Under the pieces are notes generated by a model. The model saw only the letters and a list, made by a program, of their open reading frames with translations, searched no databases and was not told the origin of the DNA. Shown piece by piece: positions 1 through 725 of a DNA stretch of 725 bases. The first letter of the stretch is position 1. Every line of letters begins with the position of its first letter. The translations under genes were made by a program, and so were the position numbers. This DNA comes from Escherichia coli (lineage in GTDB: Bacteria > Pseudomonadota > Gammaproteobacteria > Enterobacterales > Enterobacteriaceae), in assembly GCF_003334255.1 (NCBI RefSeq), contig NZ_QOWU01000195.1; one strand, given 5' to 3'.

Positions 1-635
1 ATACGCTTCCAGTCTTCGCGGTCGTTGTCGATAACTTCATTTTTTGCCCAGCGATGGATGCTGCCGTCAATGTTTCCGGCATCCACATCACCAGGCCAGA
101 GAGCGTAGGCCAGTTCGTCATCCAGTGTTTTCCATGTCTGCTTGTATTCGCGATGAATGGCAGCAATGACCGGGCTGATTTTTCCTGTTGAATTTTCAGT
201 GTGCTGTTGATTGGTTCTGGCGCGGGCGAGATCAACAACAGACGTGTATTTTCCGGTTTCCTTGCGTTCACCTTCGCGACGTTTTTTCCAGATGCGCATC
301 TCTGCCTGAATTTCGGGCCATTTGGCACCAGGCTTACATTTATGCTTAACCCACCCGATGGCATGCAGCTTAAGCTCCGGATACATGGCGTTAACTTCTG
401 GCATTTTCATCAACGCTTCAACAATATGTCCGTCGAATGTTGCCATGTCTTCCTGCAACAATTCCTGTGCGCTAATAACCATATCAACGGTGATGTTTTC
501 ACATGTGTCGAACTTAACCATGACAGCGTTCTGTACTTCAGGGGCCAGCTTGTCAAAAGTGACGTTCATCGGATCTGATTCAGTCTCAACCGGGACAAAG
601 GAAGCAGACTCCTCATCCCAGCGGTTTTCCTGCAT
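1..635 (-). CDS. Uncharacterized protein, N-terminal 211 codons; partial CDS whose C-terminus lies beyond position 1
   Basis: Seen in sequence: the minus-strand frame is open across 1..671, with the upstream in-frame stop (TAA, complement 674-672) inside the IS1 end. The first ATG is at complement 635-633. Translation: MQENRWDEESASFVPVETESDPMNVTFDKLAPEVQNAVMVKFDTCENITVDMVISAQELLQEDMATFDGHIVEALMKMPEVNAMYPELKLHAIGWVKHKCKPGAKWPEIQAEMRIWKKRREGERKETGKYTSVVDLARARTNQQHTENSTGKISPVIAAIHREYKQTWKTLDDELAYALWPGDVDAGNIDGSIHRWAKNEVIDNDREDWKR, then 2 nt of the next codon. Composition is protein-like (balanced, many D/E/K/R/W) with enterobacterial-style codons (ctg, gaa, aaa, ccg). Both + strand track ORFs are antisense to it and have shadow-ORF composition (F/C/H-rich). 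The start codon is uncertain: there is no strong Shine-Dalgarno before ATG 635 (only a weak GGA about 12-14 nt upstream), and there are alternative in-frame starts at TTG complement 662-660 (inside IS1) and ATG complement 569-567. No catalytic or nucleotide-binding motif recognised by eye. Confidence 0.7.
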   Translation of the reverse strand, partial: MQENRWDEESASFVPVETESDPMNVTFDKLAPEVQNAVMVKFDTCENITVDMVISAQELLQEDMATFDGHIVEALMKMPEVNAMYPELKLHAIGWVKHKCKPGAKWPEIQAEMRIWKKRREGERKETGKYTSVVDLARARTNQQHTENSTGKISPVIAAIHREYKQTWKTLDDELAYALWPGDVDAGNIDGSIHRWAKNEVIDNDREDWKR

Positions 636-648
636 ATATTCAGCATCC

Positions 649-671
649 GGTGATGCTGCCAACTTACTGAT
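649..671 (+). repeat. IS1 left terminal inverted repeat (IRL), 23 bp
   Basis: Sequence GGTGATGCTGCCAACTTACTGAT at 649-671. The partner IRR should lie about 745 bp downstream, outside the window, so the inverted-repeat pairing cannot be verified here. Confidence 0.85.
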
Positions 672-672
672 T
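660..672 (-). promoter_or_regulatory. IHF-like binding site inside the IS1 IRL
   Basis: Minus strand reads AATCAGTAAGTTG, against the IHF consensus WATCAANNNNTTR (one mismatch, G for A at position 6). Established knowledge: IHF binds within the ends of IS1. The match is by eye only. Confidence 0.4.
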
Positions 673-677
673 TAGTG

Positions 678-683
678 TATGAT
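678..683 (+). promoter_or_regulatory. Candidate -10 hexamer of the insA promoter (TATGAT)
   Basis: TATGAT is a 5/6 match to TATAAT, sitting 20 nt upstream of the insA GTG. No good -35 lies at 16-18 bp spacing (GCTGCC and CTGCCA are poor), consistent with a weak promoter overlapping the IRL and InsA operator as described for IS1. Exact promoter placement is not certain from sequence alone. Confidence 0.3.
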
Positions 684-692
684 GGTGTTTTT

Positions 693-698
693 GAGGTG
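693..698 (+). promoter_or_regulatory. Shine-Dalgarno (ribosome-binding site) for insA
   Basis: GAGG(TG) at 693-698, leaving a 5-7 nt spacer before the GTG start at 704. This is standard spacing. Confidence 0.6.
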
Positions 699-703
699 CT
701 CCA

Positions 704-725
704 GTGGCTTCTGTTTCTATCAGCT
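704..725 (+). CDS. insA: InsA (IS1 transposition repressor, also the N-terminal part of the InsAB' frameshift transposase); first 7 codons only
   Basis: GTG start at 704-706 followed by gct tct gtt tct atc agc, giving M-A-S-V-S-I-S, which matches the known InsA N-terminus MASVSISCPSC. The last base, 725, begins the next codon. Preceded by a GAGGTG Shine-Dalgarno. Confidence 0.85.

Follow-up and report, generated by a model that had tools for sequence, protein, structure and literature searches.

Background

IS1, the 9-bp duplication made at its target, the deletions that arise next to it, and the decay of Qin-like prophages are all already known. The classical work on the formation of IS1-adjacent deletions is reportedly that of Reif and Saedler in 1975, in the gal region, and IS1 insertions are strongly polar. 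For insertion sequences in general, simple insertions bear a target-site duplication, whereas adjacent deletions and recombination between IS copies occur without one (PMC11708052). In the established biology of IS1, the transposase connects one end of the element to a new target. When the event is intermolecular or simple, the 9-bp duplication is produced; when it is intramolecular, the DNA between the element and the target is deleted or inverted, with no matched duplication.

The locus described herein is a stretch of 725 nucleotides of Escherichia coli DNA (hereafter, the window), in which the left end of an IS1 abuts an internal fragment of a prophage exonuclease gene (Table 1). Its element agrees with the IS1A/IS1R-type members of the IS1 family found in E. 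coli and Shigella: all 77 nt are identical, and the inverted repeat (IRL), the inward promoter-like site and the start of insA at nt 56 are shared. As in the complete 768-bp copies, the element joins target DNA at the same terminal G, but the window holds nt 1–77 alone, with insB, the right inverted repeat (IRR) and the right flank outside it. The interrupted gene belongs with YdfE of the E. coli K-12 Qin prophage (PHROG 2082), of which the window encodes residues 76–291; in the window it is cut at the 5′ end by IS1.

Two sets of described events at the same prophage gene can be compared with this junction. In strain 300033 (NZ_CM128588, locus L001), an IS1 lies in the same gene and in the same orientation, the two junctions being 11 bp apart. 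That feature is a simple insertion, with the 9-bp duplication GGAATCGAG and both halves of the gene kept. However, its IS1 is an IS1F-like isoform with 10 mismatches to the window in the first 77 nt, and it occupies another site; because both the isoform and the site differ, L001 is an independent event. The second set consists of IS1-associated deletions in Qin-like prophages, examples being those of the strains E8 (L005), 3045 (L003), HCP30S3_I2 (L004), EM20-18-50 (L006) and 1506 (L007). These have the same IS1 orientation and an identical 77-nt end, and their IS1 abuts the 5′ part of the exonuclease gene or lies just upstream of it, with non-contiguous DNA, for example tail, terminase or ISNCY genes, on the far side. 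The window junction, between positions 648 and 649, is nevertheless not common to any of them.

Results

The IS1 end and the interrupted gene

Table 1. Features of the window, with their positions and the basis of each assignment
Feature	Position	Strand	Basis or content
Internal fragment of lambdoid-prophage exonuclease gene (YdfE-type, PHROG 2082)	1–648	−	100% identity to WP_021565031.1
9 bp beside IS1 (TCAGCATCC)	640–648		third base of W75, D76, A77 and two bases of E78
Perfect 7-bp inverted repeat across the junction, CAGCATC (641–647) / GATGCTG (652–658), 4-nt spacer	641–658		
IS1 left end, first 77 nt	649–725	+	100% identity to nt 1–77 of complete 768-bp copies
IRL, GGTGATGCTGCCAACTTACTGAT	649–671	+	direct reading; all compared complete copies start there; 23 bp being the established extent of the IS1 terminal inverted repeat
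Promoter-like site reading into IS1, CTGCCA-16-TATGAT	656–683	+	consensus scan only; presumably the known insA promoter in the IRL, whose position it matches
insA, first 22 nt, GTG start	704–725	+	identity with L003

The window stops exactly 77 nt into IS1 and so contains 10% of the element, the remaining 691 nt lying beyond it. This end is identical to that of the complete IS1 of L003 and of 17 further complete copies, all of which start at the same G. In L003 the annotated IS1 transposase CDS begins 55 nt past the end of the element, which places the start of insA at nt 56. The consensus scan of the IS1 end found no outward-facing promoter-like site. The first-pass annotation of this DNA had recognized the IRL junction of an IS1 and had placed the other end of the element 768 bp away. 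Both statements hold: GGTGATGCTGCCAACTTACTGAT stands at the target boundary, the 77 nt are those of complete copies, and the complete comparator copies measure 768 bp.

The 648 nt to the left of the element hold the last base of codon 75 and codons 76–291 of an 823-codon gene, which runs off the left end of the window. The source of the identity is a gene annotated as 'exonuclease' in E. coli G1/2 (NZ_CP060083, locus L002), on the minus strand in the window orientation, flanked by xis and int at one end and by a ydfD-like gene and dicB at the other. The full-length product, WP_021565031.1, matches phrog_2082 ('exonuclease') over residues 1–823; its homologues bear the precomputed Pfam labels PF27430/PF27432 (YdfE_C), and some of them are named 'Qin prophage protein'. 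The NCBIfam model for exodeoxyribonuclease VIII gave a partial match, with 284.9 bits against a cut-off of 1269, and RecE proper was rejected as an identity on account of this partial match and its score far under the cut-off. Mosaicism is pronounced in the C-terminal part of the exonuclease; the close alleles L002 and L003 differ by 42 amino acids.

On the minus strand, the reading frame is ...P-A-L-D-S-W75-D76-A77-E78-Y-M80-Q..., with the junction inside codon W75 of 823. The ATG at 635–633, which was considered as a gene start, is instead the internal methionine 80. IS1 sits inside the exonuclease ORF, splitting codon 75, and it parts the remaining 748 codons from the start of the gene and from the early-left promoter of the prophage. 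Because the break is within the ORF, the exonuclease gene is inactivated whichever outcome the duplication test has. It had been proposed that a rearrangement would mean the loss or replacement of the DNA upstream of the gene. This has to be amended, since with IS1 inside the ORF what is affected is the promoter of the gene together with the first 223 nt of the ORF itself; these are either 768 bp away or gone.

A chimeric minus-strand ORF (LAASPDAEYMQ...) is formally open across the junction, with an in-frame stop at 674–672 followed by a TTG at 662–660. Exact-protein look-ups of the truncated-gene products starting at TTG 662, ATG 635 and ATG 569, each cut at the window edge, found none, and the same look-up with two full-length versions of the truncated gene, completed with the L002 C-terminus, returned no record. 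A homology search with the chimeric N-terminus gave no representative bearing IS1-derived residues. A separate observation concerns P0051, a 243-aa 'excisionase family protein' with both PF27432 (the exonuclease YdfE_C) and PF06806, which appears to be a fusion or a mis-call linking an exonuclease fragment to xis.

The junction and the adjacent 9-mer

The left end of IS1 begins exactly at position 649, reading GGTGATGCTGCC..., and across the break the window passes from ...CTGCATATATTCAGCATCC directly into GGTGATGCTGCCAACTTACTGATTTAGTG.... Positions 1–648 are 100% identical to the intact gene in L002, which continues after ...TCAGCATCC with CATGAATCGAGG, the empty site as a whole reading ...TCAGCATCCCATGAATCG.... 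The base after position 648 is the C of C-ATGAATCGAGG in the uninterrupted gene and G, the first base of IS1, in the window. Since the two differ at this base, the boundary is unambiguous, and it is fixed from both sides, by the intact copy of the gene and by the complete copies of IS1.

The 9 bp that directly abut the IS1 left end are TCAGCATCC, at 640–648, as had been read in the first-pass annotation; the direct reading and the comparison with the intact copy agree on this. The 9-mer is native exonuclease coding sequence, not upstream DNA, and it would be the left copy of the target-site duplication if the insertion was a simple one. As it is simply whatever sequence abuts IS1, to ask whether it occurs more than by chance is not applicable. 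Within the window, an inverted match to 8 of its 9 bases, GCAGCATCC (56–64, minus strand), was considered as the second copy of a duplication and rejected, such matches being at the chance level (mean of 0.30 per shuffle). In a search with loose criteria, this same GCAGCATCC might be taken for the duplication.

Of 5426 complete E. coli genomes, 3806 have the 120 bp around the 9-mer without interruption, and a single genome can contain as many as six copies. For the junction itself, a 116-nt query had no single-piece match in the 5426 complete E. coli genomes, in the PLSDB plasmids or in the INPHARED phages, and exact patterns of 41 and 30 nt were absent from the GTDB representative genomes, the JGI metagenomes and IMG/VR. 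The absence from the complete genomes suggests that the event is recent and private.

The perfect inverted repeat that spans the junction (Table 1) is mildly unusual; in it, the native target looks like an IS1 end facing the other way. In a scan that attached the IS1 end to each position of both L002 strands, 1.1% of the sites yielded a stem of at least 7 bp, and 12 other junctions that were scored had stems of at most 5 bp. There are old reports of similarity between IS1 targets and the ends of the element. We nevertheless regard it as very improbable that the transposase prefers targets that look like its own ends, so that insertion would produce a terminus-like inverted pair at the junction. 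The repeat was noticed post hoc and is most likely due to chance.

IS1 copies at the same prophage locus and elsewhere

The comparators at the prophage locus were 16 complete IS1 copies in the same orientation (L001, L003–L007, L009–L014 and L018–L021). They are situated between the equivalent of window position 514 and approximately 750 bp past position 648, a region comprising the 5′ end of the exonuclease gene and the ydfD–dicB segment, and they represent 14 distinct left junctions, at −134 to +750 bp from the window junction. In this small sample, whose members are not independent, come from IS1-rich lineages and were surveyed in one orientation, a 9-bp duplication was observed in 4 of the 16 comparators (4 of the 14 distinct junctions). 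The duplicated 9-mers, besides the one already given for L001, are AACTTTATC in L011, CGTTTGGTA in L020 and TGTCGAACT in L021. The 12 other comparators (10 of the 14 distinct junctions) are without duplication and display deletions or replacements associated with IS1, their far side being non-contiguous DNA, for example tail, terminase, ISNCY or ydfJ genes. Among the junctions within the ORF, two of six have the duplication. The locus is a local graveyard of IS1-mediated deletions, with at least 14 distinct left junctions, most of them with loss of prophage DNA.

The history of some of these copies can be followed in their flanks. The 9-mer ATCCCTGCC is the left flank of the IS1 in L010 (3409–3417) and the right flank of the IS1 in L005 (4461–4469). 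The left side of L010 and the right side of L005 thus derive from a single ancestral insertion just upstream of the gene, each genome retaining one half and having lost the other, and the left junction of L005 is therefore an adjacent deletion reaching approximately 226 bp into the exonuclease gene. This junction is 44 bp from that of the window. Two further pairs have a common left junction and different right flanks: L003 and L009 (left flank ACAGATTTA, at 3889–3897 and 3389–3397, respectively), and L013 and L019 (left flank CGCGTCCTC, at 3845–3853 and 3852–3860, respectively). The differences on the right show that further deletion or recombination took place on that side afterwards. Within the gene, two SNPs separate L003 from the window, and L003 has the identical IS1 end 249 bp rightward, with a tail gene after it. 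Related genomes therefore contain, near the junction, a resident IS1 of the same orientation that is a possible donor (L003; L010/L005). For the window junction, the resident donor copies in L003 and L005/L010 are permissive evidence, not proof.

At unrelated loci of E. coli, all of the three IS1 copies inspected had duplications of 8–9 bp. One of them, in E. coli E50 (L015), lies between ecnA and ecnB and has the 8-bp duplication AAACATCT, at 1021–1028 and 1797–1804, a real example of the 8-bp form that had been mentioned as occasional for IS1. The flank similarity noted at unrelated IS1 copies (H53–H80) was discarded as a best-of-many chance extension, the three copies inspected having each their own duplication. 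The proposal that a duplication test can separate a simple insertion from a rearrangement is sound in its logic, being supported by the general rule for insertion sequences (PMC11708052) and by the comparators with 9-bp and 8-bp duplications.

The window as a probable short-read contig

The window probably represents an entire contig of a short-read assembly, broken at the IS1 repeat. A widely used short-read assembler usually has 77 as its largest k-mer, and a contig that enters a multi-copy repeat ends one k-mer inside it; from the length alone, we infer that this is how the right end of the window arose. The proposed check, inspection of the extended contig, is accordingly probably impossible: if the window is a whole contig that ends in the IS1 repeat, no such contig would exist, and the other end of the element would have to come from a different contig of that assembly or from the reads.

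The left end of the window nearly coincides with the end of a 596-nt NCBI draft contig from an unrelated assembly (JAYXDX010000184, L008), the two being 3 nt apart. The product of this contig, P0007 (199 aa), belongs to a cluster of 1196 member sequences, and the homology search retrieved dozens of clusters named 'exonuclease, partial' from contigs of 0.5–1.1 kb. Positions 1–3 of the window correspond to residue 291 of the protein, near a change of PHROG modules (phrog_5943 over residues 1–257 and phrog_20376 over residues 295–823). Because the exonuclease gene is multi-copy in many genomes, branches are to be expected in the assembly graph, and the position of the left end fits the idea that mosaic paralogues within one genome break short-read assemblies at this point. 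Among 13 alleles, there was no SNP that would explain a graph branch exactly at window position 1 under k=77; the mosaic module boundary at residue ~291 is a better explanation of the left end than a SNP.

Discussion

Simple insertion or deletion

Two opposed pulls act on the reading of this junction. The base rate of the locus (4 of the 14 distinct junctions with a duplication, and two of the six within the ORF) points away from a simple insertion, while the general norm that IS1 copies have duplications, together with the private character of the junction, points toward it. On balance, we lean to the reading that something other than TCAGCATCC and the rest of the gene lies to the right of the window IS1, and that an adjacent deletion or recombination between two IS1 copies probably took place. 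This lean is a base-rate expectation taken from the locus comparators, as distinct from a measurement. The deletion could have been produced by an intramolecular event from a resident IS1 situated to the right, or by homologous recombination with another copy of IS1. By either route, the 5′ end of the exonuclease gene would have been lost, the loss probably extending to nearby early genes, for example ydfD and dicB.

If the insertion was instead a simple one, IS1 entered an intact gene and duplicated either TCAGCATCC or 8 bp, its right end would lead into TCAGCATCC-CATGAATCGAGG..., and 768 bp away the first 75 codons would still be present, together with the upstream genes. Such an insertion is the default outcome of IS1 transposition, and it is what the four locus comparators with clean 9-bp duplications display (L001, only 11 bp away, L011, L020 and L021), as do all three of the unrelated copies. 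The absence of the junction from the 5426 complete genomes indicates a young event, and recent simple insertions keep their duplication; the empty site, moreover, is the common state (3806 of the 5426 genomes). Set against this are the 12 of 16 locus comparators (10 of 14 distinct junctions) that have no duplication, and, as a weak point that depends on a guessed allele and on gene calling, the absence from the record of the 84-aa N-terminal fragment, ending in ...DSWDAEVMTPTY, that a simple insertion would be predicted to leave. We consider a simple insertion a tenable but somewhat doubtful reading of this junction. An inversion, an arm of a composite transposon or a segment bounded by IS1 copies, in which the far DNA would be unrelated or inverted and not deleted, is much less credible. 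Intramolecular transposition of IS1 can invert DNA as well as delete it, as is generally known for the element, and in L007 and L010 the genes past IS1, which encode an AAA ATPase and hypothetical proteins, do not look like prophage genes; the window itself gives no sign of such an event, however, and neither an inversion nor a composite element was demonstrated in any comparator. The last alternative, that the join between exonuclease and IS1 is a chimeric contig, draws on the facts that both parts are repeated in E. coli genomes and that the window is probably a short contig. It is extremely unlikely, because the element is joined precisely from its first terminal base and the two sequences have no shared bases at the join, and hence no overlap there that might mislead a de Bruijn assembler; a similarly precise join of terminus to target was seen in all 19 complete IS1 copies examined.

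The readings differ in the sequence that each would place after the right end of the element, for which the forms ...AAGTTGGAGTCATTACC, the longer k-mer ...CTATCAGTAAGTTGGAGTCATTACC and the variant ...GGCAGCATCACC are in play. After a simple insertion with a 9-bp duplication, the right end would be followed by TCAGCATCCCATGAATCGAGGGCAGG; with an 8-bp duplication, it would be followed by CAGCATCC and the rest of the gene, reading CAGCATCCCATG.... An adjacent deletion from the resident copy of L005/L010 would give the right flank ATCCCTGCCATTGCTGG. Derivation from a copy at the site of L003/L009 would give ACAGATTTAAGGGTG, if that copy still had its own duplication intact, or GAATTGTCAGGCTGC, as in strain 3045. 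If the 5′ end of the exonuclease gene was deleted, CATGAATCGAGGGCAGGGCGG would be missing from all contigs and there would be no candidate right junction.

Meaning for the prophage locus

The junction in the window is real but ordinary, since IS1 insertions and deletions in cryptic lambdoid prophages are textbook events. What the comparison adds for this locus is that, at the exonuclease gene, a missing duplication is to be expected more often than not, and a simple insertion is not the default reading of an IS1 found there.
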